A stretch of 29,871 bases of DNA from a virus. Of this stretch, positions 1-29,871 are shown piece after piece. Position 1 is the stretch's first letter. The number at the start of each line of letters is the position of its first letter. The notes under the pieces were generated by a model, which had not been told where the DNA came from, searched no databases, and worked only from the letters and a program-made list of their open reading frames with translations. The stretch lies in the IMG/VR virus record IMGVR_UViG_3300045988_052173. One strand, given 5' to 3'. The position numbers and the translations under genes were made by a program.

Positions 1-55
1 CGACTGGCCCCGCTGGTCCTAAGGGTGACGTCGGTCCGACTGGCCCCGCTGGTCC
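1..55. repeat. Terminal overlap: nt 1-55 identical to nt 29817-29871
   Basis: Direct character-by-character comparison of both ends. The overlap lies inside the 36-bp collagen-like tandem repeat. Confidence 0.95.
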
Positions 56-170
56 GGCTGGACCGGCCGCCACCATCACCAAAGCCGCCAACGTCAACCC
101 GGAGACCGGCACGGTCTCAGACGTAGTGAAAGCCCTGATCGCCGCGGGACTAATGGAAGCATCAGTCTGA
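1..170 (+). CDS. Collagen-like repeat protein, 3' portion (5' portion at 29597..29871)
   Basis: Frame 3 is open from the window edge to TGA 168-170. It reads ..[55 protein letters not shown]. Confidence 0.8.
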   Translation, partial: TGPAGPKGDVGPTGPAGPAGPAATITKAANVNPETGTVSDVVKALIAAGLMEASV

Positions 171-188
171 CAGCCAACCAATATCAGC

Positions 189-222
189 TAGGTCCTATCG
201 TTACAATTAACGGTAGGACCTA
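189..222 (+). terminator. 12-bp stem-loop downstream of the collagen-like gene (possible terminator or processing site)
   Basis: taggtcctatcg (189-200) pairs with cggtaggaccta (211-222), with one G-U pair valid only in the plus sense. The following U-run is weak (ttcatata). Confidence 0.3.
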
Positions 223-243
223 TTCATATACCACGGAGGAAAA

Positions 244-906
244 ATGATAATCGACGACACCATACGCGACAAAGTCGGCGACACCGCATACGACACATGG
301 AAAGACGCCGCACTCGCCACCCTCTCCGACTTGATCTGCATGAACGATCTCGAACAATCCACCACCGACATGACAGGCACCGTCAGCCAAGACGGCAAAC
401 ACGTCCACATACCATCATGGTATTCAGAAATACGGTCAGCCAAAACAACGAACGACACTCCCGTCAACTATAAAACCACCTACGACAAGAACGACGGACT
501 AACGCCATCCACCACATACACGAAAACCCTGACCCTCACCCGCGAATATCCAGCCGGCACAAAAATCATCATCAGCGGCCAACACGGATTCAAAAAACTC
601 CCGGCACCACTCGCCACCATCCTCACGGCCATCATCCAAGCCGACCAGTCGATGGCAGACCGGTCCGACAGCATCACCTCAAAGAAAATCGAAGACGTAA
701 GCGTCTCCTACGCCACCAGTACGCAAACCACGCTCGAACGCGCCATCACCCCATACAAGGCGCTAATATCCTCCTGGAACCTTTGCCCAACCAACCCAGA
801 CACGGGAGGAACCCTCGACATGCCAACCCCCCACCAAGAACTGCCATGGTGGCTCAACACACAAGACTACCTAGGAGGAGACTACACGTATGGAACCGCA
901 ATGTGA
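244..906 (+). CDS. Putative head-tail connector/adaptor protein
   Basis: 220-aa ORF with GGAGG at 235-239. It is the first gene after the capsid and collagen-like genes. The function is assigned from position only. Confidence 0.55.
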   Translation: MIIDDTIRDKVGDTAYDTWKDAALATLSDLICMNDLEQSTTDMTGTVSQDGKHVHIPSWYSEIRSAKTTNDTPVNYKTTYDKNDGLTPSTTYTKTLTLTREYPAGTKIIISGQHGFKKLPAPLATILTAIIQADQSMADRSDSITSKKIEDVSVSYATSTQTTLERAITPYKALISSWNLCPTNPDTGGTLDMPTPHQELPWWLNTQDYLGGDYTYGTAM

Positions 907-1261
907 CCCATTCAAACTATTCCCCAACCAAACCCAGTCAGCTACCCTCTGGAAATACACGGCACCCGGCCTCGACAACATCAAACTCGCCGACATCAAA
1001 GTGATCATCAAACACTCCACCGAAAGCGACCAACCCACCGAATACGCGAGCCGTATCACCACCCGCCGTTTCCACACCCAACCCGACAACCTCCCCGAAA
1101 ACCTCCGCGAAGACATGGAAGCATGGCCCGACCTCATCCTCCGACTCGACAACGGACGCACCTACCAAATCACCAAAGCCAGCCGAGGCGACGACATGAA
1201 CACCGGCAAAACCATGTTCATCACCCTCACCGGCAACCCCTACGGAAGAAACAGCCTATGA
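890..1261 (+). CDS. Putative head closure / head-tail joining protein
   Basis: 123-aa ORF with AGGAGG at 873-878. It overlaps the upstream stop and sits in the connector block. Confidence 0.55.
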   Translation: MEPQCDPFKLFPNQTQSATLWKYTAPGLDNIKLADIKVIIKHSTESDQPTEYASRITTRRFHTQPDNLPENLREDMEAWPDLILRLDNGRTYQITKASRGDDMNTGKTMFITLTGNPYGRNSL

Positions 1262-1578
1262 GCTACCAACTCAAACTATCCACCACATGGACCCGTAAAC
1301 TCTCCACCCAACAACTCAACAAAGGCGGCACACGAATGATGACCGACATCCTACGCATGGCCCGCCAAAACGCACCAGTCAAAACCGGCGCACTACGCAA
1401 CAGCGGCCGCTTCCAACAAGTCGGAAACAACCACTGGCAAATCACCTTCGGCAACAGTCGAATACCATACGCACGCCTCCGCGAACACACCAACCGACTC
1501 CACCCCAACACCATCCGCTACCTCGAACGAGCCGCACACACCGCAACCACCCGCACCAAAACCTACTTCAACATGTAA
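1258..1578 (+). CDS. HK97 gp10-like tail/neck component
   Basis: The start forms an ATGA overlap with the upstream stop. The motif ARQNAPVKTGALRNSGRF resembles the HK97 gp10 family signature. The longer track ORF from 1123 is an out-of-context extension. Confidence 0.65.
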   Translation: MSYQLKLSTTWTRKLSTQQLNKGGTRMMTDILRMARQNAPVKTGALRNSGRFQQVGNNHWQITFGNSRIPYARLREHTNRLHPNTIRYLERAAHTATTRTKTYFNM

Positions 1579-1587
1579 GGACACCAC

Positions 1588-2013
1588 ATGATAGACCTAG
1601 CAGTATGCATGACCCTCCAAAACGAAGGATACGGCACCTACGGCCAAAACCTCTTCTTCGGCACCAGCCCCATCCTCGACACCGGCACCATCACCAACCA
1701 AGAAGGCATCTGGGTCAACGCCAACACCATCGACATCAACGGCGACCTCTACACCGACCAAATCACCATCAGCAGCCGCCACAACGACGTCCTCACCCAA
1801 GGACGCCTCATGCTACGACTCCTCAACCTCATCAACAACACACTCCCCCACTACTGCCAACTCACATGCCAACCAATCACCGACATCACCTACGAATCAA
1901 TCCGCACACACCCAGCCACCGCAATAGACCTCGACGCCATCGACCACGAAGGCCACTGGGTCAAAAGCATCCGCTTCCAAATCGACTACAAACTCAACCC
2001 CACAACACTGTAA
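1588..2013 (+). CDS. Putative tail completion / tail terminator protein
   Basis: 141-aa ORF with AAGGA 6 nt upstream, located immediately before the major tail gene. Confidence 0.5.
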   Translation: MIDLAVCMTLQNEGYGTYGQNLFFGTSPILDTGTITNQEGIWVNANTIDINGDLYTDQITISSRHNDVLTQGRLMLRLLNLINNTLPHYCQLTCQPITDITYESIRTHPATAIDLDAIDHEGHWVKSIRFQIDYKLNPTTL

Positions 2014-2072
2014 AATAAAAACGGCATAATACACCACAGTCAAAACAGGCACGCCAACCGAAAGGAAAAAAA

Positions 2073-2930
2073 ATGGCATCATACCCACTCATCGGCAAAA
2101 AAACCGTCTACATCGACGACATGATCATCCCACCCGACTACATCCAAGACGAAGTCGGCACCATCACCCTCACCCCAAGCACCACCGAAATCGCCAGCCA
2201 ATCAGGCACCATCAAAGTCCCCAACGGCAGCTACGACGAAATGAGCTTCGAAATCAACATCATCTGCCCAAGCGTCCGCTTCCTCGGCATGCTATTCCCC
2301 GAACTCTACCACAACGCCAAATTCAAACGAGCCCTCAACGGCACCATGAACGAAACCGGCCAAGTCCGATTCGGCGGCAACGAATGCATCAGCAACACGC
2401 CACGCGACATCATCATCCACAACGTCTGCGACGGACACTCCAGCGCACAAGACTTCCGCATCCCACAAGCCCTCATCAGCGCCGGAGGCGAATTCAAAAT
2501 CAGCCTCAGCGACCCCTTCGTCGTCACCCTCTCCGGCACCATGACCACCAGCCCCGAAGGCGCAGTAGTCATGGGCGAACTCAACCTCGACACGCCAGCC
2601 TACTACGACGAAACCACCGGTTCAATCAAAACAACAGAACACCCAATCACTGAACTAAAAGCCACGCCAACCTCCATCACCGGCAAAGTCAACGACACAA
2701 TGAAAATCAAACTCGCCATCCTCCCGGACGGAGCAGCCGGAGACATCACCACCGAACTCTCCCAGCAAGGCTTGGCCGAAACCAAGGACAACGGCGACGG
2801 CACATGGAACATCACCCTGAAAAACCCCGGTACCGGAACTCTAACCTTCAAATCCGGAAACGCGACATCCAATGTCAACCTCACCATAACAGCCGCACAA
2901 GCCGACAGTAACACTGACGAAACAGTCTGA
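2073..2930 (+). CDS. Major tail protein with C-terminal Ig-like (Big_2-type) domain
   Basis: 285 aa, positioned before the chaperone pair and tape measure. The C-terminal segment ATPTSITGKVNDTMKIKLAILPDGA...TLTFKSGNATSNVNLTITA looks like a bacterial Ig-like fold. Confidence 0.7.
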   Translation: MASYPLIGKKTVYIDDMIIPPDYIQDEVGTITLTPSTTEIASQSGTIKVPNGSYDEMSFEINIICPSVRFLGMLFPELYHNAKFKRALNGTMNETGQVRFGGNECISNTPRDIIIHNVCDGHSSAQDFRIPQALISAGGEFKISLSDPFVVTLSGTMTTSPEGAVVMGELNLDTPAYYDETTGSIKTTEHPITELKATPTSITGKVNDTMKIKLAILPDGAAGDITTELSQQGLAETKDNGDGTWNITLKNPGTGTLTFKSGNATSNVNLTITAAQADSNTDETV

Positions 2931-2943
2931 CAGAAACAAAAAA

Positions 2944-2985
2944 AGCGTCCGTCGCGAAAGAAAGGCAAAGAACACGACGAACGCT
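2944..2985 (+). other. Interrupted stem-loop after the major tail gene
   Basis: agcgt/acgct and cgtcg/cgacg arms with one mismatch and a 20-nt loop. There is no U-run. It could attenuate or process the transcript. Confidence 0.25.
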
Positions 2986-3053
2986 GAATCACATGGTCTC
3001 TCAAACAAGGAACCAATCACCATGATACAACATTATTAACTGGAGTCCAAACA

Positions 3054-3404
3054 ATGGTTACACCAATCCTCGATATCGACACTCGCAAAAGCTTCCGTAA
3101 CCTCACCGTCAAACTCGACGGTATCATCTACACCATGCGACCACTCGGCTCTAAAGACATGCTCACCATCCTCGACAACGCCGAAGCCCTCGACAAACTC
3201 TCCACCGGCCGAATGACCAAAGACACATTAGAAACCGCAGAAGAAACCATCTTCCCACTCGTCGCCAACCTCATGGAACCAAACAACGCCTTCCACGAAT
3301 GGATGCAACAAACCAAACAACGCAGCGACCTCGCCTACATGCAAGCCATGACCGCCCTCTGCAAACTCATGGCCGAAAACCTCACCCTCAACATCAAAGG
3401 CTGA
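3054..3404 (+). CDS. Tail assembly chaperone (gpG-like)
   Basis: 116-aa ORF located between the major tail and tape measure genes. Confidence 0.65.
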   Translation: MVTPILDIDTRKSFRNLTVKLDGIIYTMRPLGSKDMLTILDNAEALDKLSTGRMTKDTLETAEETIFPLVANLMEPNNAFHEWMQQTKQRSDLAYMQAMTALCKLMAENLTLNIKG

Positions 3405-3412
3405 CACACAAC

Positions 3413-3739
3413 ATGCGCTCATGGGATAGCCTCCTCACCCCCGCCGAAAAACAGCGGATGCAAACATACAAACAACAAGAAACAAAACAACACACCCCAC
3501 CCAGCATCCGCATCCTCGCTGAACTCGGCGACCTCTACGGGTGGGAGGCCATCCGCGACACACTAGAAAACCACATAACACCAGACCTACTACTCGCCCT
3601 CATCAAAGAAGGCCGCCACCTCCACCAAACCCGACTAGCCGAACAATACCAATTAACCTTCGAATGCCTAACCGCCGCATTCACCAAACACGGAGACCAA
3701 AAAATCAGTCGCATCATAAACAAACTCGGAAAGGACTAA
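3413..3739 (+). CDS. Second chaperone-region ORF (gpT-like position, -1 frame relative to 3054..3404)
   Basis: This frame is open from 3299 and overlaps the 3' end of the upstream gene in the -1 frame. It has its own ATG at 3413 and ends 3 nt before the tape measure start. Confidence 0.55.
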   Translation: MRSWDSLLTPAEKQRMQTYKQQETKQHTPPSIRILAELGDLYGWEAIRDTLENHITPDLLLALIKEGRHLHQTRLAEQYQLTFECLTAAFTKHGDQKISRIINKLGKD

Positions 3740-3742
3740 CAA

Positions 3743-5791
3743 ATGGCTGACTCCACACTTACACTCGACGCGGAAATCAACACCAGTGACTGGGAAAACG
3801 GAGTCAAAACCATCCAAAACGGTAGCCGACAAATCGAACAATCAGCCCGCCAAGCCAGCGAAAACATGGAAGAAATCAACAAATCTTCCACCAAAGCCTC
3901 CAACAATACCAGTAAATTCGCCACCATCGCCGGCACCATGAGCGGCCTCGTATCCACCGGCATCAACATGGCAGTAAACGCAATCGGCAACCTCAGCAGC
4001 GACATCACCGAAGCCTCCGACAGCGCACAAAAATTCACTAGCACACTAAGCTTCGCCGGCCTAGACACAAGCACTATCAACCAGCTTACCGCCAGTACGC
4101 AAAAATACGCGGACCAAACAGTATACGATTTAGCTGACATTCGTAACACGACCGCACAGTTAGCAGCGAACGGTGTAAACAATTACGCGAACCTAGCCGA
4201 AGCCGCCGGTAACCTGAACGCTGTCTCCGGTGGCAACGCGGACACATTCCGTTCAGTAGGCATGGTACTCACCCAGACAGCCGGTGCAGGCAAACTCACC
4301 ACCGAAAACTGGAACCAGTTGGCTGACGCCATCCCGGGCGCTTCCGGCAAACTACAGGAAGCCATGCTCAAAAACGGCGCGTACACGGGTGACTTCCGTG
4401 ATGCGATGGCCAAAGGTGAAATATCAGCCGAGGAATTCAATAAGGCCATCATGGATTTGGGTATGACCGACGCGGCCAAGGAAGCAGCCACGAGCACCCA
4501 AACCATCGAAGGTGCGATGGGTAACCTGGAAGCTTCCGTCGTCAACGTGGGCGTGCAAATATTGGACTCGGTCAAAGGCCCCTTAACACAGGGGATGAGC
4601 ATGCTCGCCGAAGGTATCAGCGGTTTACCTCAAGCGTTCACCGGCATGATGGGATCGATCACGCCGGTTCTGCAACAAGTGGGTAGCGTGTTCCAAGCCT
4701 CTTTCGCGCCTGTCGGCCAAGTGGTCACCAGTCAACTATTACCCGCTTTGAAACCGTTCATGCAAGCCTGCCAGAATCTGGGCACGGCTATCATGCCGGT
4801 ATTGAATGCCGCGTTCCAAACGTTCACGCCCGTATTGGGTTCACTGGTCGCGAAACTCACCGAGGTCGGTGCGACCATCATGACCTCGATCACGCCTGTC
4901 ATCAATAACATGGCCGCACTGTTCCAAACCGCACTGCCGGTACTCCAAGCATTGTTCCAATCGTGGGGCGCTTCCATTCAAGGTGTCATCGACGCGGTAT
5001 TCCCGTACATTCAAACGGTCATCAGTACGGTAATGAACGTCATCAACGCGATCATCACTACCGTGATGGCAGTGTTGCAAGGCAATTGGGATGGCGTATG
5101 GGCTGGTATCGGTAATCTCGTCTCGACCGTATGGAATGGTATTAAATCGGTGGTTTCGGCTGGTGTGAACGCCATTTCCGGTGTCATCTCGACTGTTTCG
5201 AACACTATCAATACCGTCTGGTCGGGTTTATGGAATGCGGTCAAGGGATTGGCGTCCAATGCTTGGAATGGTATCACCGGTGCCGTCAAGAATGGTGTCG
5301 ACAGTGTGGCGAACACGGTCAATGGCATTGGGGGGAAGATCAAGGGCGCGTTCAGTAATGCGGGCTCGTGGCTGGTTTCCGCCGGTAGGAACATTATCCA
5401 AGGCCTTATCAACGGTATTAAGAATGCTATCGGTAATGCGGTTTCAGCGGTCAAGGGAGCTGCTTCCAGTATCGTGAATGCCGCGAAAAACGCGTTGGGT
5501 ATTCATTCTCCTTCTCGAGTGTTCCGTGATGAGGTCGGTAAGATGATTCCGGCTGGTTTGGGTGTCGGCGTGGAAATGAACGAGAAGCTCGCGGTCCAGC
5601 CGGTGCAAAGCATGGTGTCTTCCTTGCTTCCTTCTTCCTTTATGGGTTCCGTCGCGAGTGCGGTCTCATCGCCGGTAAGCTTGTCCGGTAATGATGGGCC
5701 TCGCGTGTCGGCTCCGATCACTGTGAATGCTTCCGACCCGACGATGGCGGCCCGGGAAACGGTCCGTATGCTTAACTTCTGCTACGTGTGA
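3743..5791 (+). CDS. Tape measure protein
   Basis: 682 aa. The N-terminus looks coiled-coil-like and there are repeated W..G/N..I segments. The conserved-looking GIHSPSRVFRDEVGKMIPAGLG motif is present near the C-terminus, and the position is canonical. Confidence 0.9.
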   Translation: MADSTLTLDAEINTSDWENGVKTIQNGSRQIEQSARQASENMEEINKSSTKASNNTSKFATIAGTMSGLVSTGINMAVNAIGNLSSDITEASDSAQKFTSTLSFAGLDTSTINQLTASTQKYADQTVYDLADIRNTTAQLAANGVNNYANLAEAAGNLNAVSGGNADTFRSVGMVLTQTAGAGKLTTENWNQLADAIPGASGKLQEAMLKNGAYTGDFRDAMAKGEISAEEFNKAIMDLGMTDAAKEAATSTQTIEGAMGNLEASVVNVGVQILDSVKGPLTQGMSMLAEGISGLPQAFTGMMGSITPVLQQVGSVFQASFAPVGQVVTSQLLPALKPFMQACQNLGTAIMPVLNAAFQTFTPVLGSLVAKLTEVGATIMTSITPVINNMAALFQTALPVLQALFQSWGASIQGVIDAVFPYIQTVISTVMNVINAIITTVMAVLQGNWDGVWAGIGNLVSTVWNGIKSVVSAGVNAISGVISTVSNTINTVWSGLWNAVKGLASNAWNGITGAVKNGVDSVANTVNGIGGKIKGAFSNAGSWLVSAGRNIIQGLINGIKNAIGNAVSAVKGAASSIVNAAKNALGIHSPSRVFRDEVGKMIPAGLGVGVEMNEKLAVQPVQSMVSSLLPSSFMGSVASAVSSPVSLSGNDGPRVSAPITVNASDPTMAARETVRMLNFCYV

Positions 5792-5809
5792 CAGGGATAT
5801 CATAGTTTC

Positions 5810-6700
5810 ATGAGCATTTTTTTAGAAGATAATCGTGATATCCGTTTAACGTTGGAGGGATTCCCGTTATATGGCGTGGACTCGTATGATTGTGAATGGC
5901 ATGTCACGTTTCAGGACGTGTCCGGCTTGTTCGATGGTGTCGCGTCCACGTTGCGTACGAGCGAGAAAGCCATGAGCGACGGATGGTATGCGAATCTGCC
6001 ACGCTTGCAAGGCCGGTCCATCAGTGTCGAGGGATATATCATCGGCCGGTGTACTGAATCGTGTATCACGTCATGGAACGCGTTCAAAAGGATTTTGAAC
6101 TCCGATGAAATGACGTTGGGTATACGATTGGGTGACCTTCGCCGTCAGGTACGGGTGTTGCAGTCCGCGTCCGCACCATTGGTTAAATGGGCTGGAGTGA
6201 ACATGCTCAGGTTCAGTCTTGGATTGACGTCTTTGAGCCCGTACCTGTATGGGGTGGATCCGGTGTCCGGTAGTTCTTATCTTCCGTCCTCGTCGGGTGG
6301 TATGACGTTTCCTTATCATTTCGGTGGTAACGACGCATCATCGGGGTTTTGGGAGTGGAGTGAGGTTGTCGAGTCCGGTAGCGTGAGACTGTCGAACGTT
6401 GGTAACGCTCCCAGTCCGGTGGTGATGCGTATTGACGGGCCTGTCGTGAATCCGCAGGTGTCGCATGCCGGGAGCGGTCACGTCATCGCTTTCGACATGA
6501 CTCTTGGCCGTGGCCATTATGCGACCGTTAACGGAATGACCCATGAGATCCTGATCGATGGGACTGATCCGGCTCGTGGTCGTGTCGTCCGTCGTGAGTG
6601 GAGTCAGGCGGAAGTCGGTTCGAATGTTTGGTCTTTCAGCGCGAGTGAATATTCGAAGGCGGCTCGCTTGCATGTCATGTTCTATCCTGCTTACGTGTGA
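5810..6700 (+). CDS. Distal tail protein (Dit-like)
   Basis: 296-aa ORF directly after the tape measure gene. The function is positional. Confidence 0.6.
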   Translation: MSIFLEDNRDIRLTLEGFPLYGVDSYDCEWHVTFQDVSGLFDGVASTLRTSEKAMSDGWYANLPRLQGRSISVEGYIIGRCTESCITSWNAFKRILNSDEMTLGIRLGDLRRQVRVLQSASAPLVKWAGVNMLRFSLGLTSLSPYLYGVDPVSGSSYLPSSSGGMTFPYHFGGNDASSGFWEWSEVVESGSVRLSNVGNAPSPVVMRIDGPVVNPQVSHAGSGHVIAFDMTLGRGHYATVNGMTHEILIDGTDPARGRVVRREWSQAEVGSNVWSFSASEYSKAARLHVMFYPAYV

Positions 6701-6711
6701 GGAGTGTCATC

Positions 6712-7812
6712 ATGGGTGATCGATGGTTTATGGGTTCTTCTTCGTATGCTTCCCGGATTCTGTGGGATACGGATGGTTTCCAGTTCCTTGCCGTGTCTTT
6801 GACTAGTGGGAGCGTGTTGGCGGAGTTCCCGGACTTGCAGGCTTCCAAGTTTTCGTATCGTTTCGAGGATATGACGAGTGAGACGGTGATGATTCCGTGG
6901 CATGATATTCCATCCAATTGGGTTGAGGCCACGGTCCCGTATGCTGTGGCTGTTCTTTTGGTTCGTGAGTCGACGGTATTGTGGGGTGGTATCGTGGTCA
7001 AACGCGAACGGACGTTGCAGGGTGAGGGGTTGACGCTTACGTTGGCTACTGTCGAACATTATTTAGATAGCGTGTATGTGAAGGATCATTCCTATTCCGG
7101 TTGGGAGCAGACTTGGATCGCGAGTGATCTTGTAACGTCGACGCTTGAGGGGCACCGGTTCATGATCAGTGTGGACACGGCGTCTAGTAGCGTTCACCGT
7201 GACAGGACGTATGAGGAGTCTTCGGGTAAGACTTTGTTGAGTGTTCTTCAGGAGTTGTCGAACGTGCAGGATGGTCCGGAATGGTGTACGTCATGGCGGG
7301 TTGATGGTGGCCGGTATACGCCGGTTTTGACGATTGCGGATAGGATAGGTTCGGTAACCCCGGTTACGACGTTTGATGAGAGTGTGATGACGTCTTTCAA
7401 GGTGTTGGAGGATTATACGAGTGGTTATGGTGCGAACATGGTCGTAGCGGTCGGGAGTTCGTCTGGTGAGGACCAGTTGCGTTCCGATGTGATGGTGGCT
7501 GATCAGTCTTATCGTCCTGTCGTGGAGCATGTGGTCCGCCCGTCGTCGAGTATTACGCGTAAGGAAACGTTGGACGCTTATGCGTCGTCCTCGTTACGGC
7601 AGTTACAGGATGGTACGAATACCGTTGATATGACGTTGAGTCTGATGGCTGCTCCTGCTGTTTATAGGGAGTGGAAGCCGGGTGATGTCGTCGCGTGGAC
7701 TATCGCTGATGATGATGGCCGTTTCACTGGTTTCGCTCAGGGTCAGGCGCGTGTCATCGGTTATAATATCGATTTCAGTGGCGCGTGGACTATTACGCCT
7801 GTGTTGCAGTAG
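6712..7812 (+). CDS. Tail-associated (Tal-like) baseplate protein
   Basis: ORF in the Tal position. I prefer ATG 6712, with GAGGAG at 6700-6705 six nt upstream, over the track start GTG 6697. Confidence 0.55.
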   Translation: MGDRWFMGSSSYASRILWDTDGFQFLAVSLTSGSVLAEFPDLQASKFSYRFEDMTSETVMIPWHDIPSNWVEATVPYAVAVLLVRESTVLWGGIVVKRERTLQGEGLTLTLATVEHYLDSVYVKDHSYSGWEQTWIASDLVTSTLEGHRFMISVDTASSSVHRDRTYEESSGKTLLSVLQELSNVQDGPEWCTSWRVDGGRYTPVLTIADRIGSVTPVTTFDESVMTSFKVLEDYTSGYGANMVVAVGSSSGEDQLRSDVMVADQSYRPVVEHVVRPSSSITRKETLDAYASSSLRQLQDGTNTVDMTLSLMAAPAVYREWKPGDVVAWTIADDDGRFTGFAQGQARVIGYNIDFSGAWTITPVLQ

Positions 7813-22076: not shown

Positions 22077-22135
22077 ATACCCAAAACCCTACGAGCCGCT
22101 CCACTCATACCAGCAATACACCGATGCGCAAAAAG

Positions 22136-22164: not shown

Positions 22165-22171
22165 GAGACGT

Positions 22172-22351: not shown

Positions 22352-22465
22352 AAACAGGCAAACACACATAAAGGAGCCAATCCAACGAACACCGAAATCC
22401 AAACATTCAACTTCAATGCCGCACCGCTGCGCGTCCTGACCGGCGAAAACGGCGAGCCATGGTTC

Positions 22466-23179
22466 GTGGCCAAGGACGTATGCGACATCCTCGGCCACTC
22501 AAACGCAAGCATGGCAGTCGACCGCCTCGACGACGACGAACGGGCTAAGTCCAACTTAGGGCGTCAGGGAGAAACCAACATCATCAACGAAGCTGGCCTC
22601 TACACCCTCGTACTCGGCTCCCGCAAACCGGAAGCCCATGAGTTCAAACGCTGGATCACCCACGAAGTCCTCCCGTCCATCCGCAAGACAGGCGGCTACA
22701 TTCCGGCAACCGAAGCAGACTCGGATGAAGACATCCTCGCAAAAGCCGTACTCATCGCACAAAAGACCATCGACCTCAAAAACAGACAGCTCCAAGCCAA
22801 AGATGCGCGAATCATGGAACTGGAGCCGAAAGCGCAAGCACTTGACGCTTTCACCGACATCGAAGACCGACTGCTCGTCCGCGACGCAGCAAAGATCCTT
22901 TCCAACGCCGGCACGCCAATCAGCGAAAAGCAGTTGCGCGAATGGATGGCAACCAACGACTGGATCTACAAGACCAATGGCTCATGGCATGCGACAGCGA
23001 GACACTGCACGGCCGGCCACCTCACGATGGTCATGTCCACAAAGCACGGCACCAAGGCAGACGGCACAGCATTCGCCTTTCCCCCAACCGTGCGCATCAC
23101 CCGCAAAGGATTGGCACTACTCCACAGGCACCTAGGAACAGCCAACCTGACAAACGCCCTCGAAACAACCACCCACTAA
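22466..23179 (+). CDS. BRO-N / KilAC (ANT) antirepressor-like protein; true N-terminus probably upstream of the listed GTG
   Basis: Motifs seen are FVAKDVCDILGH, INEAGLYTLVL and FKRWITHEVLPSIRKTG (BRO-N). The C-terminal KilAC-like segment reads LLVRDAAKIL...WIYK. The in-frame upstream codons (22391-22465) encode the missing BRO-N start EIQTFNFNAAPLRVLTGENGEPWF. Confidence 0.8.
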   Translation: MAKDVCDILGHSNASMAVDRLDDDERAKSNLGRQGETNIINEAGLYTLVLGSRKPEAHEFKRWITHEVLPSIRKTGGYIPATEADSDEDILAKAVLIAQKTIDLKNRQLQAKDARIMELEPKAQALDAFTDIEDRLLVRDAAKILSNAGTPISEKQLREWMATNDWIYKTNGSWHATARHCTAGHLTMVMSTKHGTKADGTAFAFPPTVRITRKGLALLHRHLGTANLTNALETTTH

Positions 23180-23201
23180 CCAACAAGAAAAGGAAACACC
23201 A

Positions 23202-23657
23202 ATGAACGATCCGCACATCATCCTCCCCTCCGCCCGCCTAGTCGCAGAACCGGAACCCAAGCAAACCAAGAACGGCACCCCATACCTCCTCATCCGCGTA
23301 GCCGCCAACGGCAGCCACAAAGACAAGCAGACAGGACAATGGGTAGACCACGACACCATGTTCGCCACCATCTTCGAATACGACCAGCGTCTCGCCACCA
23401 CCTACACCCAAAACCTCCACAAAGGCACACCGGTACGCGTCGAAGGCGACCTGAAATGGCAGACAGGCACCGACCACAACGGACAGCCACGCACCGACTT
23501 CACCATCAACTACGCGACCATCACCCTAGTCCTCAAGAAAGCCAAAACCCAACAGTCCACGCCACAGCAGCCCACACCACAACAACAGGCCGCAAACTGG
23601 GGAAACACTAACCAGCCCGACCCGTATGCACAGTTCCCCGCCGTCGACGAATGGTGA
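23202..23657 (+). CDS. ssb: Single-stranded DNA-binding protein
   Basis: OB-fold pattern ARLVAEPEPKQTKNGTPYLLIRVAAN...KGTPVRVEGDLKWQ, followed by a Q/P-rich linker and an acidic-aromatic C-terminal tip (AVDEW). Confidence 0.8.
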   Translation: MNDPHIILPSARLVAEPEPKQTKNGTPYLLIRVAANGSHKDKQTGQWVDHDTMFATIFEYDQRLATTYTQNLHKGTPVRVEGDLKWQTGTDHNGQPRTDFTINYATITLVLKKAKTQQSTPQQPTPQQQAANWGNTNQPDPYAQFPAVDEW

Positions 23658-23662
23658 AAGAA

Positions 23663-23809
23663 ATGAATACAATGAACCCCAAAAAACATCCACTCAGCTA
23701 CAAGCTAGGCACATTCTGCGCCTACCTCCTCGTCGCGATGACAACAGTCATCGGAGTGACAGGAACCATCGCCATCCTTAAACTCCTCATCGACTTCATC
23801 CTCAGCTAA
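23663..23809 (+). CDS. Small membrane protein (48 aa)
   Basis: Hand translation gives MNTMNPKKHPLSYKLGTFCAYLLVAMTTVIGVTGTIAILKLLIDFILS*. A terminator follows. The ORF falls below the track size cutoff. Confidence 0.45.
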   Translation: MNTMNPKKHPLSYKLGTFCAYLLVAMTTVIGVTGTIAILKLLIDFILS

Positions 23810-23815
23810 AAACAC

Positions 23816-23842
23816 AGCCCCACACCAACGTGGGGCTTTTTT
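23816..23842 (+). terminator. Intrinsic terminator
   Basis: AGCCCCA-8 nt-TGGGGCT followed by TTTTTT. Confidence 0.8.
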
Positions 23843-23851
23843 CAAATTAGG

Positions 23852-23857
23852 TATAAT
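23852..23857 (+). promoter_or_regulatory. TATAAT -10 box 7 nt upstream of the small-terminase ATG (no recognisable -35)
   Basis: The geometry is the same as the promoter at 22159-22164 and its ATG. The -35 position falls in the terminator T-tract. Confidence 0.45.
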
Positions 23858-23864
23858 CGGCAAC

Positions 23865-24254
23865 ATGACAGAAGTAGTAAGAGACCGCCGCGGCAGAATC
23901 GTCAGCGGAGTATGCAACCCCACAGGCAAAGGCGGCTTTCAGGAGCGCCCACAAGACCGAGGCTCATGGACCAAAGACACCAGTCCAACCCGCTGGATAC
24001 GCGAATACAGCAAGCTCACCATATCGGAAATCAACGAAAAAGTAAAAGATCCGGACCTGACGATGGTGCAGCGAATCGCCATCAAACATGTCCTCAATGC
24101 ATACAAGGACCCACACGTCACGACCGACTACATCGACCGACTCGACGGCAAGGCCCGCCAATCCACCGACGTGAACGTCACCGGCTACGAACCGCCGACC
24201 ATCACGCTCGAAGTCTTCGACGACAACCCCGAAAACACCAAGGACAACCAGTAA
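23865..24254 (+). CDS. Putative terminase small subunit
   Basis: 129 aa, immediately upstream of the large terminase. The N-terminal NPTGKGGFQERPQDRG motif resembles small-terminase N-termini. Confidence 0.6.
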   Translation: MTEVVRDRRGRIVSGVCNPTGKGGFQERPQDRGSWTKDTSPTRWIREYSKLTISEINEKVKDPDLTMVQRIAIKHVLNAYKDPHVTTDYIDRLDGKARQSTDVNVTGYEPPTITLEVFDDNPENTKDNQ

Positions 24255-24273
24255 AAGCACATAGACCGGACTC

Positions 24274-25533
24274 ATGCAGATAGCAAGACCATACCGCGAC
24301 CTATGGTGGTGGCTCCACACGGAGACGCCACCATATCGTTATTACTGCTATTCCGGAGGCCGAGCCTCAGGCAAAAGCACCGCAGTCGCGCAAAGCCTCA
24401 TCCTCCGAGCCTCTGTCCAGCCAATCACCGTCCTCTGCGCCCGTGAATTCCAGAACTCCATCACCGACTCCGTCTACAAGCTCCTCACCGGCACCATCGA
24501 AAAATTCGGATTGCAAGGTTTCGAAATCAGACGTGACGGCATCGGCCACATCAACGGGAGCAGTTTCATCTTCCGAGGCTTGCATGACAACCTCCAATCC
24601 ATCAAAAGCATCGAAGGAGTCGACGTCTGCTGGGTCGAGGAAGCACAGACCATCAGCAAGGCGAGCCTGACTACACTCATCCCGACCATCCGTAAGACCA
24701 ACTCCACACTGATCTTCACGTGGAACCCGCTCACCAGCCACGACCCCGTCTGGACATACTTTGTCTCCACGGATTCAGAGGAACGACTACGTCAGACCTG
24801 TCACTGGCACACCACCTTCAACGACGTGCGACGACTCCTCAGCCAAGACGTCCTCGACATGGTCGAAGCCGACAAGCAGACAGCCGACTACGGACACGTC
24901 TGGCTCGGCCTCCCATACGCCGATACGGACAACCAGCTCATCAGCGACACCATGATCAACGAAGCCATCCGACGCGAGGCATCCGACGGACCCACGACCT
25001 TCGGCGTCGACGTCGCACGCTACGGCAACGACCGCACCGCCCTCACCATCAAGACCGGCAACCGTATCGAAACACTCGAATCATGGACGCACGCAAGCAT
25101 CGTCGACACAGTCGAACGAATCAGACTACACGCATCCCAACACCATCCGATCGACATTCGCGTCGACGACACAGGCGTCGGCGGTGGAGTCACCGACCTA
25201 CTCAAAACATACGGACTGCCAGTCACCGGCATCAACTACGCCGGCAAAGCCAAAGATCCACAATATCCAAACATCGCCTCGGAACTGTGGTTCGACTTCG
25301 CCTCCATGCTCCCCCAGCTCAGCATCAACCCGCAGATCTCCGACCTCCCCAAACTCACCACCGAACTCACCACACGCAAATGGCACATAACAAGCCGCAA
25401 CCAACGGCAAATCGAAAGCAAACAGGATTACAAGGACTCCACGAACCTCGGAAGCCCCGACCTCGCCGACAGTCTGCTCCTTGCCTGTTATGAGCCACCG
25501 AAACTCCCATCATGGGACGTCGTAGTATGCTAA
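24274..25533 (+). CDS. terL: Terminase large subunit (PBSX/Terminase_3-like)
   Basis: Walker A is SGGRASGKST and the Walker B-like motif is VDVCWVEEAQ. The C-terminal nuclease region contains DDTGVGGGVTD. Confidence 0.9.
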   Translation: MQIARPYRDLWWWLHTETPPYRYYCYSGGRASGKSTAVAQSLILRASVQPITVLCAREFQNSITDSVYKLLTGTIEKFGLQGFEIRRDGIGHINGSSFIFRGLHDNLQSIKSIEGVDVCWVEEAQTISKASLTTLIPTIRKTNSTLIFTWNPLTSHDPVWTYFVSTDSEERLRQTCHWHTTFNDVRRLLSQDVLDMVEADKQTADYGHVWLGLPYADTDNQLISDTMINEAIRREASDGPTTFGVDVARYGNDRTALTIKTGNRIETLESWTHASIVDTVERIRLHASQHHPIDIRVDDTGVGGGVTDLLKTYGLPVTGINYAGKAKDPQYPNIASELWFDFASMLPQLSINPQISDLPKLTTELTTRKWHITSRNQRQIESKQDYKDSTNLGSPDLADSLLLACYEPPKLPSWDVVVC

Positions 25534-25592
25534 ACAACACCCACTGAGCTAAACTATGAAACATACAACATACCACTACAAAACGAGGCAAA

Positions 25593-27686
25593 TTGACCAT
25601 TCTCAGCAACCTACGCTCAGGCTTCACGAACGCATTCGGCCGCGCCGACGCACCACACTCGACGCCAACACCAGCCGGCGGCAACGCATGGCAGCCAATG
25701 GGCGGCAACACCATCCCCATGCATGACATCTACGACAACATCTTCCCCTATGTCAACGCCATCGCGCAACGCTTCAGCACCATCATTCCCTACGCCGTCA
25801 CAGCTGACGGTAGAAAACTCGACACCGCCCCCGCAGCATTAAACGCACTATACGCACCGAACGACACCTACAGCTGCTTGGAATTCCTGAAGCTCATCGC
25901 CTCCGGCATGCTCACCCAATCCCACGTCGACATCCTCGTCTGGACGACGGAAGGCCCCGGCGGCAACATCACCCCGGACAACATCACCGGCTACACCATC
26001 CTCCCGGCAAACAGCCGCGTATACAACGACAGTCGCAGCGACTGGTACCATCACGTGACCATGGACCTCGGCAACGGTCCACAACCCTACGAATTCACCC
26101 GCGACGAAACCATCTCACTAAGCTACAGCCGTCACCCGAACGACCCCCCCCGCGGTATCAGCCCCGCCATGACCATCAAAAAATGGGCCAACGTCGACGA
26201 CATGATCGCAGACTACGAGCGCGGCTTCTTCGGCAACAACGCCGTACCCGCCGGCATGCTCGGCATCGTCTCCGAAAACGCCGAAGACTTCCAACGCAAC
26301 CGCGCACGCCTCGAAGAAACCTTCCGCGGAGCCGGCAACAACAACGGCATCGTCTACAACATGGTCCCAGTCGACCCGACCACCCATAAGCCAAGCCAAA
26401 CCAGCAAACTCGTCTGGGTCCCATTCCAGAACTCCAACGACACGCTCGACTTGCAAACCGTATCCGACGTAGTCAACAACCGCTTGGCCAACGCGCTCGC
26501 CGTCCCCGACATAGTACGAGGCATCGACAATGGCCAAACCTACGCCAACGCCGAAATGGCCGAACGCTCCTTCATCGAAAACACCCTCAAACCCCTCTGC
26601 ATGACCGTATGGGACAAATGGCAGTTCGAACTCGACCGCATCACCGGAGGACTCGGCTACGGAATCACCTTCGACCTCGACCTACCGGCACAGACCGAAG
26701 TCGAGAAAGCACAGGCGGAAACCCAACAGATCCGTGTCAACAGCCTCATCCAACTCGTCAACATGGGAGCCACGGTCGAAAGCGCAGTCGACGCACTAGG
26801 ACTCCCCGACCCCTACAAGCGACTCACCCTCCACAAAACCGACACAACCCCACTATCCTCCACCTCCCAAAAAAGAACCATCACGAAAGCCGCCAAAAAA
26901 ACAGACGACACGACAACCGAAAACCGGATACTGCCAGCGACCCGCACCTACATCGATAGGATCATCCGCCTCACCCGCCGCTCCCAAAACGGACTGAAAG
27001 ACGACCTCGAAACCATCGGCCGCCAATGGGTCAACGACGTGGAAGACACCCTCATCGCCCACCTCACCGAATACGCGCACAAAACCGGCATGAAACTCGA
27101 ACAGGTCATCACCGCATGGGCCGAACTCCACCCGGAAAACCCCATCGCCGTCGACATCCAGTCCTACACGACAACCGACTGGAAGAAACTCTACGACTGG
27201 ACCACCCTACCCGACGACATCATGACGGCCTACGAGACCCACCTACAGGAGATAGCCAACACAACATCCAAAACCATCACCAACAAAACCTTGGAACTAC
27301 TGAACCGAGCCGACTCGGAACAATGGGACGCACGACGACTACAAAACGAGCTCGCACGCTTCGGAAACGAACACGCCGAACTCATCGCCCGCTGCGAAAC
27401 CGTCCAATCACAGAGGCTCGGAAGCCTGTACAGCGCCCGTAACCTCAGCGAAACATTGGGCGTCAGACTCCACAAGGTATGGCGTACCACCGGAGACAGC
27501 AACACATGCGACTTCTGCCAACACATGGAAGGCACCACAATACCGCTAGACTCCACCTACATGGAAAAGGACGCGGTCGTCAACATCGGCGACCACTCCT
27601 ACACCAACAGCTTCGAAACCATGGCCACGCCAAACGGTCACCCACGATGCCGCTGCTACGAAGACTATGAAGTGGCGGAAGACTAA
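25593..27686 (+). CDS. Portal protein fused to a Mu F / SPP1 gp7-like minor head protein domain
   Basis: 697 aa with a TTG start and GAGG 5 nt upstream. The position after terL fits a portal. The C-terminal motif is WRTTGDSNTCDFCQHMEG...NGHPRCRCYE. Confidence 0.8.
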   Translation: MTILSNLRSGFTNAFGRADAPHSTPTPAGGNAWQPMGGNTIPMHDIYDNIFPYVNAIAQRFSTIIPYAVTADGRKLDTAPAALNALYAPNDTYSCLEFLKLIASGMLTQSHVDILVWTTEGPGGNITPDNITGYTILPANSRVYNDSRSDWYHHVTMDLGNGPQPYEFTRDETISLSYSRHPNDPPRGISPAMTIKKWANVDDMIADYERGFFGNNAVPAGMLGIVSENAEDFQRNRARLEETFRGAGNNNGIVYNMVPVDPTTHKPSQTSKLVWVPFQNSNDTLDLQTVSDVVNNRLANALAVPDIVRGIDNGQTYANAEMAERSFIENTLKPLCMTVWDKWQFELDRITGGLGYGITFDLDLPAQTEVEKAQAETQQIRVNSLIQLVNMGATVESAVDALGLPDPYKRLTLHKTDTTPLSSTSQKRTITKAAKKTDDTTTENRILPATRTYIDRIIRLTRRSQNGLKDDLETIGRQWVNDVEDTLIAHLTEYAHKTGMKLEQVITAWAELHPENPIAVDIQSYTTTDWKKLYDWTTLPDDIMTAYETHLQEIANTTSKTITNKTLELLNRADSEQWDARRLQNELARFGNEHAELIARCETVQSQRLGSLYSARNLSETLGVRLHKVWRTTGDSNTCDFCQHMEGTTIPLDSTYMEKDAVVNIGDHSYTNSFETMATPNGHPRCRCYEDYEVAED

Positions 27687-27705
27687 GCCACTGCATCTAG
27701 CATCG

Positions 27706-27714
27706 TGATATTAT
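27706..27714 (+). promoter_or_regulatory. Extended -10 promoter TGaTATTAT upstream of the capsid gene
   Basis: The nonamer is identical to the minus-strand promoter at 21900-21908. Confidence 0.45.
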
Positions 27715-27715
27715 A

Positions 27716-27758
27716 GTGCTCGTCAGAAACATCAACCACTGGTGTCACTGACGAGCAC
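27716..27758 (+). promoter_or_regulatory. 11-bp stem-loop in the capsid gene leader
   Basis: GTGCTCGTCAG (27716-27726) pairs with CTGACGAGCAC (27748-27758). No U-run follows. Confidence 0.5.
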
Positions 27759-27782
27759 CACTGTCTAATCCGGAAGGATCGT

Positions 27783-29594
27783 ATGAAGATTCGAAAGAGT
27801 CTAACTCACGGCGGTGCCGCTGAAACCGAAGGCCGGACCCTCACATTCCTCGCCAACTCCGGCAAGGTAATGTGCGGCGGACTCACCGTGGACCTCGACA
27901 CGCTCAAAGCCCCACTCATCGACGGGACCCTGAAACTCGTGTCCGGACTCGACGAATCCGACCAGCTTTCGCTCCCCCTCCTCATCGACCACATCCCAAG
28001 CGTCGAAGCACAAGCCGGCACCATCACCCGCCTGTGGACGACCAGCGACGGACTCATGGCCGAAGCGAGACTCAGCGAAGTCGACAACGGGGAACGTGTC
28101 CGCCAGCTAGCAGCCGACGGATGCCTGACCAACAGTTTCAGCATCACCGTTGAATTCACCAAACAGCCCGGCAACGACGGCATCATCCACAACGGCGAAC
28201 TGGTCGAAATCAGCGTCGTCTACCGTGGAGCCGACCCACGAGCCGCCTTCACCTCAATCAACAACCGAAATGGAGACACCATGCATCCTGACCTCATGAA
28301 CAAGCTGGCACGTACCGTCGCCGAGTTCAAACTCACCCCGGACGAAGCCGCTAACCTGACCTCGTCCATCACCGATATCATGCAGAACGCCGTCGACGAC
28401 ATCACCGAAGCAGTCGACGACCAGACCTCCGCCAACGAAGGAGACACCACAGTGAACACTGCCCCGGAAGAACCCGTCCAGTCCGCCAACAAGCGACCGC
28501 TCGTCATCATCAACAAGAGCAACCGTGCCGCCAAGCAGTCCGGTGTCGCTTCCTTCTCCCACTCCCGTGAAACGTGGCTTGACTCCCCGGACGCCATGGC
28601 CGCGTTCGAACGCACCCTCATCGACAACGACAACAAGGGCGTGGAAGCATTCCACAAGGAATGGGCCGACACCGTGTCCCGTAACATGGCCGACACCGCA
28701 TCCTTCGGTGTAGGCGCAAACGACGTGGACAAGTTCATCCCGACCGAAGCCATCACCACCATCAGCGACGCGTTGAACACGCGCGGCAGCGGCCTGTGGA
28801 ACCTGTTCCGTAAGACCGGCATGGACCGTCTCACCATCGGCGGTAACGTCCTCGGCCTGTCCGACGCGACCCGCGCACACGGCTACCCGGTCGCCTCCTA
28901 CGGCACCAAGAAGAAGGAACAGACCCCGTCCTTCGTGAAGCGTGAACTGACCGCCGACTACACGTATAAGTACATCACCCTGAACAAGGGTGATATCCGT
29001 CGTACGCAGAAGCCGGGCGCACTCCTCCGCTACATCCTCTCCGAACTGCCGAACTACATCATCCAGACCATCGAACGTCAGGTCGTGCTCGGCGGCTATG
29101 AGGACATGGCACACTTCCGTTCCATCACCGTCGACGCGGCCGACAAGTCCTCCGAATGGGCCGGCAATAAGTTCGCCCTCTCCTACACACTGACCGAGGA
29201 CACGCCGCTCATGGGCTTCGTGAAGGCTTCCCACATGGTCCGCGCACAGGGCAACAAGGTCCTCGTCTGCAACGCGGACACGGTAGCCGACCTCCTCATG
29301 AGCGCCAACGCGAACGGCAACACGTACATCGCCCTCGGCGGTGACGACACCCTCGCCCGCGCTCTCGGCGTCTCCCAGATCATCACCCCGGAATGGTGGA
29401 CTGCGGAAGACGACAAGAAGGTCGCCGGTGTCGTCATGAGCGCTTCCCACTATGCGCTCGTCGGCGACACTTCCGTCGAATCGTTCACGAACTTCGCATT
29501 GCAGACCAACACCAACGAATACCTCCAGGAAATTTACGCTGGTGGCGGTTTGGATGCTGAAAAGTCCGCAGTGGTCATCAATCCGAAGGCCTGA
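27783..29594 (+). CDS. Prohead protease (HK97 S78/U35-like) fused to an HK97-fold major capsid protein
   Basis: 603 aa. The N-terminus (LPLLIDH...AGTITRLW...SFSITVEF...[16 protein letters not shown]) matches the prohead protease pattern. The middle is acidic and coiled, like a scaffold. The C-terminal ~300 aa look capsid-like. Confidence 0.8.
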
Positions 29595-29596
29595 TA

Positions 29597-29871
29597 ATGA
29601 ACTCTGAAATGTATTCTCGAATCGGTGGCAAGGCGCTGCCGGAAGATAATCTGAACACGGTCAAGGTCATCAACTTCGTGGACGAGGAAGGGCAGCCGGT
29701 GGCTTTTGGCCAGGGCCCCGCTGGTCCTAAGGGTGACGTCGGTCCGACTGGCCCCGCTGGTCCTAAGGGTGACGTCGGCCCGACTGGCCCCGCTGGTCCT
29801 AAGGGTGACGTCGGCCCGACTGGCCCCGCTGGTCCTAAGGGTGACGTCGGTCCGACTGGCCCCGCTGGTCC
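29597..29871 (+). CDS. Collagen-like repeat protein, 5' portion (continues at nt 56..170 after removing the overlap)
   Basis: The sequence is [39 protein letters not shown] followed by ([12 protein letters not shown])x4 and then GPAGP.., running off the window end. Confidence 0.8.
29714..29871 (+). repeat. 36-bp tandem repeat (4.4 copies) encoding [12 protein letters not shown]
   Basis: Units start at 29714, 29750, 29786, 29822 and 29858. They differ only by a synonymous ggt/ggc change. Confidence 0.95.

Follow-up and report, generated by a model that had tools for sequence, protein, structure and literature searches.

Extreme, position-dependent strand asymmetry, probably of replication type, in a clade of human-gut phages

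Bacterial chromosomes and theta plasmids carry a replichore (chirochore) skew, with two compositional domains of opposite sign that are independent of gene orientation, extend to synonymous and intergenic sites, form near-equal arcs and have one of their switches at origin-like DNA. Bacterial skew is usually below about 0.2. In vertebrate mitochondrial DNA (mtDNA) an A+C-rich strand is paired with a G+T-rich strand, most sense strands are A+C-rich and amino acid usage is shifted (T, I, K and N against V and G); the sign is the same round the circle, with a gradient given by single-stranded time. Protein-primed linear genomes of the adenovirus/phi29 type have halves of opposite sign. The iteron-type theta origins of lambdoid and SPP1-like phages combine direct repeats at about two helical turns and adjacent short repeats, the repeat sequence varying with initiator type, with a helix-turn-helix (HTH) O/DnaD-like initiator, an AAA+ DnaC/IstB-like loader, a single-stranded DNA-binding protein (SSB), exonuclease plus annealase, and a resolvase. 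In lambda O and SPP1 gene 38 the iterons lie inside the initiator gene. Here, the strand asymmetry of a siphovirus-type phage is described, based on the 29,871 nucleotides of IMG/VR record IMGVR_UViG_3300045988_052173 (hereafter the window; positions refer to its plus strand) and on its relatives. In the literature, neither this phage group nor an inverted skew in phages was found described.

The window shares all of the named features of replichore skew: exactly two sign-change regions were found, giving two arcs, and the sign follows position. It differs from bacterial replichores in that the skew is larger (0.26–0.39 over whole domains, up to 0.96 at four-fold degenerate sites), in that AT and GC skew are equally strong, in a polarity inverted relative to the origin-like element, in unbiased zones at both switches (termed N1 and N2, together 20% of the genome), and in that the extreme bias is confined to one clade. 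With the heavy/light asymmetry of vertebrate mtDNA it has in common the A+C-rich and G+T-rich strands, a comparable magnitude, the predominance of A+C-rich sense strands and the direction of the amino acid shift; however, it shows two signs, a flat amplitude and unbiased zones instead of a single sign with a displaced-strand gradient. Halves of opposite sign are also a property of adenovirus/phi29-type genomes, but the phage assembly is circular, ends placed at N2 would predict the reverse of the observed polarity, and neither a terminal-protein gene nor a family-B polymerase gene was found among the annotated genes of the window. The lambdoid/SPP1-like set of replication genes and repeats recurs, with the difference that the candidate array lies in a non-coding stretch 1.9 kb upstream of the initiator gene.

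The bias is real and stronger than could be seen in a previous sequence-only reading of the window, which had used seven hand counts of 60 nt (all of them exact); whole-genome skew and four-fold sites were calculated here. On the plus strand, domain I (22.3 kb via the wrap of the circle to 3.9 kb; A.298, C.357, G.206, T.140) had a GC skew of −0.27 and an AT skew of +0.36, and domain II (6.55–18.9 kb; A.144, C.196, G.331, T.329) a GC skew of +0.26 and an AT skew of −0.39. In 1-kb intervals, GC skew ranged from −0.16 to −0.44 and AT skew from +0.14 to +0.46 between 22 kb and, past the wrap, 4 kb; between 5 and 18.5 kb the corresponding ranges were +0.07 to +0.39 and −0.15 to −0.59. The cumulative keto skew spanned 4051, compared to 217 ± 46 after base shuffling and 1061 ± 238 (maximum 2124) after shuffling of 300-nt blocks. 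The sign changes near 4–5 kb and 19 kb, on which the sequence-only reading had staked its claim, were present in the windowed whole-genome skew. The best two-step fit placed the switches at 5,050 and 19,300, with arcs of 14.25 and 15.57 kb, in keeping with the 14.5 and 15.3 kb estimated before.

Selectively neutral sites carry the bias, and it is largest at four-fold sites. The first part of domain I, with an A+C-rich (amino-rich) plus strand (22300–29871; anti-repressor (Ant), SSB, TerS, TerL, portal and protease–capsid fusion (MCP) genes, all plus), gave four-fold GC skews (GC4) of −0.44 to −0.81 and four-fold AT skews (AT4) of +0.25 to +0.88. Past the wrap (1–3900; connector, tail-tube and chaperone genes, all plus) the plus strand remains A+C-rich, and the bias is maximal at about 1.5 kb. 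Domain II, with a G+T-rich (keto-rich) plus strand (6550–18900), holds plus-strand tail-tip and lysis genes at 6.7–11.2 kb and minus-strand early genes at 11.25–18.7 kb; GC4 was +0.27 to +0.81 and AT4 −0.5 to −0.92. Over about 60 loci of the clade, in plus-strand terms, GC4 and AT4 were −0.96 and +0.92 at about 1.5 kb, and +0.81 and −0.91 at about 13 kb. Third positions on the coding strand of head, tail-shaft and early genes were nearly all C or A (GC3 skew −0.45 to −0.89, AT3 skew +0.5 to +1.0), and the tail-tip and lysis genes, which belong to the same plus-strand operon, had codons ending in G or T (GC3 skew +0.37 to +0.58, AT3 skew −0.79 to −0.89). Intergenic spacers matched the sign of their domain in 17 of 17 cases, with negative keto skew in 7/7 spacers of domain I (mean −0.26) and positive keto skew in 10/10 of domain II (mean +0.29). 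Since four-fold-site diversity inside the clade reached 50–70% of its saturation value, these sites have turned over and mirror the current local mutation balance. An assembly artefact or chimera was rejected, as at least 13 relatives, each assembled independently, and near-identical contigs of several samples have the same structure.

The MCP gene (27783–29594) was observed to use T- rather than A-ending four-fold codons (AT4 −0.25 to −0.44; sister clade −0.7), as if, in the gene with the highest expression, translational selection prevailed over the mutational bias.

The switches, previously taken as points, turned out to be two unbiased zones of 2.65 kb (N1) and 3.4 kb (N2). N1 (3900–6550) covers most of the tape-measure gene (TMP) and Dit. 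Its centre, at about 5.2 kb, is close to the antipode of the iterons described below, and its composition is about balanced and equal to that of the sister clade (keto skew +0.04). With the weakly biased sister clade as the codon-usage baseline, the excess third-position keto skew (strong minus weak) was −0.44 to −0.92 up to 3.4 kb, about 0 (−0.08 to +0.21) at 4.0–6.4 kb and +0.31 to +0.71 from 6.6 kb onward, so that N1 is bounded by steps at about 3.6–4.0 kb and 6.5–6.6 kb. N2 (18900–22300; repN-like, g19192, a 1.3-kb non-coding stretch, DUF1064, dUTPase and g21624, all minus) is centred at about 20.6 kb and has a keto skew of −0.025. At its left edge the skew drops from about +0.5–0.7 to about +0.1 (18.9–19.2 kb), the interior is near zero save for a small orientation term, and the skew is clearly negative again from 22.3 kb. 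The minus-strand genes at 19.5–22.5 kb, which had been assigned to the A+C-rich domain, sit instead in this essentially unbiased zone. Genes of N2 have diverged within the clade like other genes (identity 83–93% for DUF1064, 68–86% for dUTPase); as they are as old in the clade as the biased genes, their neutrality is positional and not the result of a recent import. The amplitude of the bias is flat up to the edges of both zones, and the arcs between the zone centres (5.2 and 20.6 kb) measure 14.4 and 15.4 kb of 29.8 kb. One switch region is thus centred on iterons near the initiator gene and the other lies near the antipode, making them candidates for origin and terminus.

Position, and not the coding strand, sets the sign; this had been proposed from the sequence together with a refuting test, and the proposal held. 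Position explained 79–83% of the gene-to-gene variance in third-position skew (R2 0.79–0.83) and orientation alone 30–44%; in an additive fit the position term was 0.42–0.57 and the orientation term 0.07–0.14, the sense strand being slightly C/A-rich. At the convergent junction of late (plus) and early (minus) genes (11179–11253) the skew is unchanged: from 10.5 to 12.5 kb, GC4 was +0.44, +0.51, +0.40 and +0.54, and AT4 −0.88, −0.92, −0.68 and −0.74. The sign changes inside the intact TMP gene (3743–5791, plus; phrog_58, E 4e-88, residues 1–673 covered), in which the GC3 skew of the coding strand goes from −0.56 (N-terminal part) to −0.01 (C-terminal part), and plus-strand genes at 6.7–11.2 kb have the sign opposite to that of the plus-strand genes from 22.5 to 3.5 kb. 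A sign that follows position is a property of replichore asymmetry; a sign that follows the transcribed strand, as in transcription-type asymmetry, was not found, save for the minor orientation term. The earlier statement that transcription cannot explain the pattern was right in that position dominates, and too strict in that a small coding-strand contribution exists. At the 11.2-kb junction, a hairpin is followed by a T-run on the plus strand.

Hundreds of relatives of about 30 kb are present in IMG/VR, and they were grouped by mean absolute keto skew per kb. A strong clade (0.20–0.31) with portal identity of about 77% or more and nucleotide identity of 78–85% to the window was separated from a sister clade (0.03–0.14; portal identity about 74%), and all other fetched comparison loci had values of 0.16 or less; about 40 gut contigs share the pattern of the strong clade, including the TMP-internal switch. 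In the sister clade this geometry recurs, about four times weaker: head genes and spacers are slightly A+C-rich, tail-tip genes are slightly G+T-rich, and the flip lies near the antipode of its own initiator gene. Gene layout, exonuclease and Erf (64–72% identity) are shared between the two clades, and many members of the sister clade have the same terminase type (TerL 80–83%, TerS 72–75% identity). The sister clade has its own O/DnaD-like initiator and is without the DnaC-like loader, dUTPase and DUF1064, carrying instead a DAM-like+GNAT protein, a ParB-like nuclease, DUF488 and RusA.

Several candidate determinants of bias strength were rejected by these comparisons. The DnaC-like loader was found in every strong-clade locus covering the region, in two alleles of about 50% identity, and in no sister-clade locus; within the strong clade, both alleles and several initiator types go with equal bias. 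Unrelated phages with homologues of the DnaC-like loader, DUF1064 and dUTPase (50–69% identity) have an ordinary composition. None of these three genes is therefore a sufficient cause. Terminase type was rejected as the determinant because sister genomes with TerL 80–83% identical are only weakly biased. The isolated Bifidobacterium phage BlindUri1 was unbiased.

N2 has the anatomy of a candidate iteron-type theta origin. At its centre lies an array of five direct repeats beginning GATTTTGCGGC, with a spacing of 22–23 bp (20544–20642), 1.9 kb upstream of the predicted initiator gene; no other cluster of copies with up to one mismatch was found anywhere in the genome. Unique direct repeats of about 17–23 bp in helical register near an initiator, as are typical of iteron origins, are thus present. 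The adjoining stretch of lower GC content holds 2.6 copies of a 13–14-nt repeat, TAGAGTATCCAAC (20502–20536), and repeats of 12–16 nt adjoin the iterons in other clade members too. Upstream sequence was available for 13 other strong-clade loci, and 12 of these had a 22–23-bp array of 2.4–5 copies at 1.4–2.0 kb upstream of the initiator gene; by a stricter score, 2 of 13 reconstructed genomes were without an array. The iteron sequence varies between genomes and appears to covary in part with the N-terminal domain of the initiator: all six other genomes with window-type iterons have a window-type domain, and all five genomes lacking that domain have other iterons. Covariation with the neighbouring small genes (repN, g19192 and ORF 20137–20502) was considered and rejected, none being seen. 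The predicted initiator (17842–18687, minus; phrog_678, E 9e-24) is O/DnaD-like with an HTH_36 N-terminal domain, and the gene next to it encodes a putative DnaC/IstB-like AAA+ helicase loader (16915–17763, minus; phrog_50, E 3e-59; PF01695). Forks leaving 20.59 kb would be co-oriented with 75% of coding DNA.

Public gene calls are absent from 19.44–20.74 kb. Beside the iterons, a non-coding block (20000–20420) has 82–92% identity to the window in 14 genomes, against a genome average of about 80–85%, and is conserved above most coding DNA of the clade; the left part (19.95–20.3 kb) is A+C-rich on the plus strand. Codon periodicity was not found in ORF 20137–20502 (minus) and no Rfam match was obtained for the block, which may belong to the origin, act as a pac site or encode an RNA. 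The left part of the non-coding stretch (19438–19990) varies in length among clade genomes, the whole spacer measuring 832–1696 nt, and a sharply A+C-rich patch was noticed at 19.3–19.55 kb.

Taken together, the near-equal arcs, the origin-like zone, the featureless antipode and the flat amplitude make bidirectional theta replication the best explanation; as forks from one origin meet at the antipode, a single cis element would account for the positions of both switches. From this geometry we infer a neutral leading/lagging mutational imprint of bidirectional theta replication from the iteron region, and assign it a probability of roughly 0.45. Replication would start in the non-coding iteron region at about 20.6 kb, near the initiator and DnaC-like loader genes, and two forks of similar speed would travel about 14.4 and 15.4 kb to meet at about 5.2 kb inside TMP/Dit, each strand being always leading or always lagging between the switch zones. 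Unequal rates of complementary substitutions would then push spacers, silent positions and, in part, proteins towards A+C or G+T; in net terms the A+C-rich strand would lose G and T, which corresponds to C>T and A>G on the other strand. The first primer of each strand would, close to the origin, become the leading strand of the opposite fork, and close to the meeting point each leading strand would fill what was left unprimed; up to about one Okazaki-fragment length from either place both strands would be synthesized continuously, which would produce the unbiased zones. With an iteron origin the leading strand would be A+C-rich and the G+T-rich strand would be the leading-strand template, and G·T-type errors or damage would be fixed mainly on the lagging nascent strand or on the leading-strand template.

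Relative to sister-clade orthologues, net changes on the A+C-rich strand consisted chiefly of G>A and T>C, with a contribution of G>C and T>A, and the other domain showed the complementary set; viewed from the partner strand, this is an amino-to-keto change (C>T, A>G), a signature that fits both cytosine/adenine deamination and G·T mispairs. Third positions were too saturated to rank substitution paths. In close pairs, A<>C differences were the commonest at the four-fold sites of domain I, and C<>T or G<>T differences at those of domain II; this is for the most part a consequence of which bases predominate on either strand and does not point to the driver. Near-identical genomes differ from the window by 1–4 bases each, too few for a spectrum. 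A measured comparison is provided by mutation-accumulation lines of the actinobacterium Corynebacterium glutamicum, in which the leading strand favours C>T and A>G via G/T mispairs of the DnaE-type polymerase, transitions dominate and complementary transitions differ 1.4- to 3.8-fold between leading and lagging strand (PMC6159521). This preference was gone in a polymerase-mutator strain also lacking EndoMS (PMC6159521), so the polarity depends on the polymerase and repair context. A transitions-only equilibrium that we calculated from the wild-type rates gave a leading-strand GC skew of about +0.5 and an AT skew of about −0.3 (rates from PMC6159521). The size of the phage bias is therefore within reach of replication errors, and only its sign is odd. 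According to Drake's rule, the per-base mutation rate of a 30-kb phage is orders of magnitude above the cellular one, which makes polymerase errors a likelier source than single-strand exposure lasting seconds.

Several observations weigh against replication from the iterons as the cause. An A+C-rich leading strand is the reverse of what is found in every cellular replicon, including C. glutamicum, in whose EndoMS/NucS study the leading strand gains the G and T that the phage would lose (PMC6159521). To the right of the iterons the plus strand has C>G and A>T, and the rule of a leading strand with G>C and T>A is obeyed only by an origin in TMP/Dit, where no origin-like feature was found; the polarity puzzle raised in the sequence-only reading, with the cellular rule pointing to about 5 kb in TMP and the only origin-like DNA at the opposite switch, stands. 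The edges of N1 are close to gene boundaries (TMP start 3743, Dit end 6700), which could hint at a module effect instead. Three genomes with a window-like initiator N-terminal domain (60–82% identity) have different iterons. The sister clade, which likewise has an O/DnaD-like initiator, is only faintly biased, and the replication module alone does not account for the strength of the bias. A more specific form, in which the origin lies at the iterons, the polarity is truly inverted, almost all fixed G·T-type changes fall on the discontinuously made strand or on the template of the continuous one, the neutral zones are an Okazaki-scale readout and a clade-specific factor multiplies the asymmetry about fourfold, can be proposed only tentatively; such a factor might be the mode of replisome recruitment, an inhibitor of repair encoded by one of the unannotated early genes, or the lack of the sister clade's DNA-modification genes.

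The same leading/lagging cause could act with canonical polarity if replication started at about 5.2 kb in TMP/Dit and the iterons served as terminus, fork barrier or in some other role, which we consider unlikely. The leading strand would then be G+T-rich, matching cellular replicons and the C>T/A>G bias of C. glutamicum, and the twin neutral zones and equal arcs fit either origin assignment equally. However, N1 contains no iteron-like repeats, only the degenerate internal repeats typical of tape-measure genes; its DnaA-box-like sites are not clustered, it has no AT-rich stretch, and across about 35 genomes it shows no synonymous-site constraint, its synonymous diversity being the highest in the genome. 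On these grounds a cis element in the TMP gene was rejected. An origin there would need two cis elements (a featureless origin and a terminus), would leave their antipodal placement to coincidence and would run 75% of coding DNA head-on to the forks, and N2 is the site of the genes for initiator and loader as well as of the variable, partly initiator-matched iterons. A transcription-linked cause, which appears improbable, would have the sense strand of the dominant transcript become A+C-rich; early leftward transcription from about 19.2 kb would run antisense past 11.2 kb and fade at about 6.5–4 kb, where late rightward transcription would be attenuated. About two-thirds of the genome has an A+C-rich sense strand, the small orientation term is of this kind, the junction hairpin has its T-run on the plus strand only, so that leftward read-through is conceivable, and a pair of strong divergent promoters could lie where the bias sets in, at about 19.0 and 22.3 kb. 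Yet known transcription-associated bias makes the sense strand G+T-rich, which is the opposite sign. Moreover, the promoter-proximal minus-strand genes at 20.7–21.8 kb are unbiased, bias and expected expression do not run in parallel (other genes are more biased than MCP and tail tube), antisense would have to exceed sense transcription over 5 kb of essential late genes, and the antipodal placement of N1 would be a coincidence.

Resection by exonuclease and Erf inward from linear ends within 18.9–22.3 kb, with deamination (of C and A) of the exposed plus (left) and minus (right) strands making these G+T-rich, would give the polarity seen here by ordinary chemistry, place a switch halfway along the molecule and leave a terminally redundant zone unbiased, and the phage encodes a YqaJ/RecE-like exonuclease, Erf, SSB and a resolvase. 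This scenario is nevertheless very improbable: a decay with distance from the ends would be expected and is absent, the third-position keto difference being −0.9 at 2.2–2.4 kb and +0.7 at 6.8 kb, right beside N1; resecting both halves would destroy the duplex; sister genomes with the same exonuclease, Erf and terminase type are only faintly biased; and the zone in question lies 1.6–5 kb upstream of terS. Least credible of all is the absence of any positional mutation, the domains being either a mosaic of imported modules or the product of gene-set-specific selection on codon or mRNA composition. Phage genomes are mosaic, with replication region and terminase differing between the clades and within the sister clade, the edges of N1 are near gene boundaries, and selection visibly retains T-ending codons in MCP. 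Against this, non-coding spacers carry the sign of their domain without exception, codon endings within one plus-strand operon are complementary before and after TMP, genes of the unbiased zones and biased genes have been in the clade equally long, with silent sites at 50–70% of saturation, and no donor of complementary composition was present among 367 loci. A replication bias acquired as a prophage from a host was rejected, since no relatives were found by portal protein in 185k bacterial genomes and no integrase turned up in family searches run on the window proteins.

The asymmetry extends to protein sequences and to open reading frames (ORFs). In comparison with sister-clade orthologues, A+C-coded genes have gained T, I, K, P, H and N and lost V, R, A, G and F, and G+T-coded genes have gained V, S and G and lost N, T, I and K; the reshaping of the proteome suggested before is thus real, though the residue lists then given were partly wrong (P, Q, F). 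Stops per codon amounted to about 0.01–0.03 on the A+C-rich strand, compared to 0.02–0.06 on the other, and, as had been anticipated, this stop-poor strand carries long spurious ORFs. The minus-strand ORFs 8605–9753 (382 aa) and 10021–11157 (378 aa), antisense to tail and lysis genes, had no family matches; since the plus-strand Dit, Tal, fibre and amidase genes have such matches, real genes hidden on the minus strand of the tail-tip region were rejected. The two antisense ORFs are a trap for gene callers.

The gene layout was established by family searches (PHROG and Pfam), which agreed with the gene orientations stated previously. Head, tail and lysis genes occupy the plus strand from 22466 via the wrap to 11178, in the order anti-repressor, SSB, TerS, TerL, portal, MCP, connectors, tail tube, chaperone, TMP, Dit, Tal-like, fibre and amidase endolysin. 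Replication and recombination genes occupy the minus strand from 21842 down to 11254, in the order dUTPase, DUF1064 resolvase, initiator, DnaC/IstB-like loader, DUF3310 protein, Erf annealase (13885–14478), YqaJ/RecE-like 5'–3' exonuclease (12863–13765) and small regulators. Known RNA families and tRNAs were not found in the window. Within the plus-strand late operon, between fibre-region genes and endolysin, lies a minus-strand gene of 114 aa (9471–9815; phrog_1397, E 3e-12); the plus-strand ORF 9615–9806 overlapping it has almost zero four-fold-site diversity and is probably not a gene. Four-fold-site diversity was also very low (0.11–0.15 of saturation) in the DUF3310 region (15600–16100), which suggests an overlapping constraint, or a recent sweep or transfer.

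The circular unit is 29,816 bp, the first 55 nt of the window being identical to its last 55 nt. This overlap falls within a 36-nt tandem repeat (4.4 copies, 98% matches; 29714–29871 plus 1–67), at which many clade contigs begin and which codes for collagen-like Gly-X-Y triplets in a small ORF behind the capsid gene. In another assembly of the same phage the length differs by 3 × 36 nt; the true length of the unit may therefore be off by multiples of 36. Near-identical genomes are present in several human-gut metagenome assemblies. The nearest isolated phages are those of honey-bee Bifidobacterium asteroides (portal identity about 50%), and the closest cellular homologues of the endolysin are from Bifidobacterium species, from which the host is presumed to be a gut Bifidobacterium.

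Further observations concern the sister clade. Homologues of the SSB gene (23202–23657, plus; PF00436) in the sister-clade loci L289–L316 are strongly A/C-ending (GC4 −0.3 to −0.6, AT4 +0.2 to +0.7) and their neighbours are not; a recent acquisition from the strong clade, or some local influence next to the origin region, may be the reason. In sister-clade locus L149, three minus-strand genes encode DAM-like-phage1 + GNAT-phage-like (2268–3689), ParB-like nuclease-domain (1558–2337) and DUF488 (3765–4178) proteins; their predicted functions suggest adenine hypermodification of DNA, and the strong clade has none of them. Locus L191 contains a 413-aa TnpB/IS605-type ORF (19109–20350), on a 142-kb IMG/VR contig that leaves the sister-clade phage exactly at the lysis/early-gene junction; the continuation is a TnpB-type IS element rather than clear host DNA and may represent insertion, integration or misassembly.

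The asymmetry described here is real, extreme, position-dependent and clade-specific, and is probably a new form of replication-type strand asymmetry. In most genomes, replication and transcription bias are inseparable because genes are co-oriented with the forks; in this phage, 5 kb of late genes extend past the antipode of the origin-like region and the bias ignores their orientation, so that a single 30-kb molecule allows the two contributions to be told apart. Of the silent G+C positions on one strand up to 98% are C, codon usage and amino acid composition are rewritten within a single operon, and the long false ORFs that result matter for virome annotation. If the origin assignment is true, the phage breaks the rule of the G-rich leading strand that is routinely used for origin prediction in phages and metagenome-assembled genomes. 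As the sister clade combines the same layout with a quarter of the bias, the determinants of the strength of replication-strand mutagenesis could be found by comparing the two.

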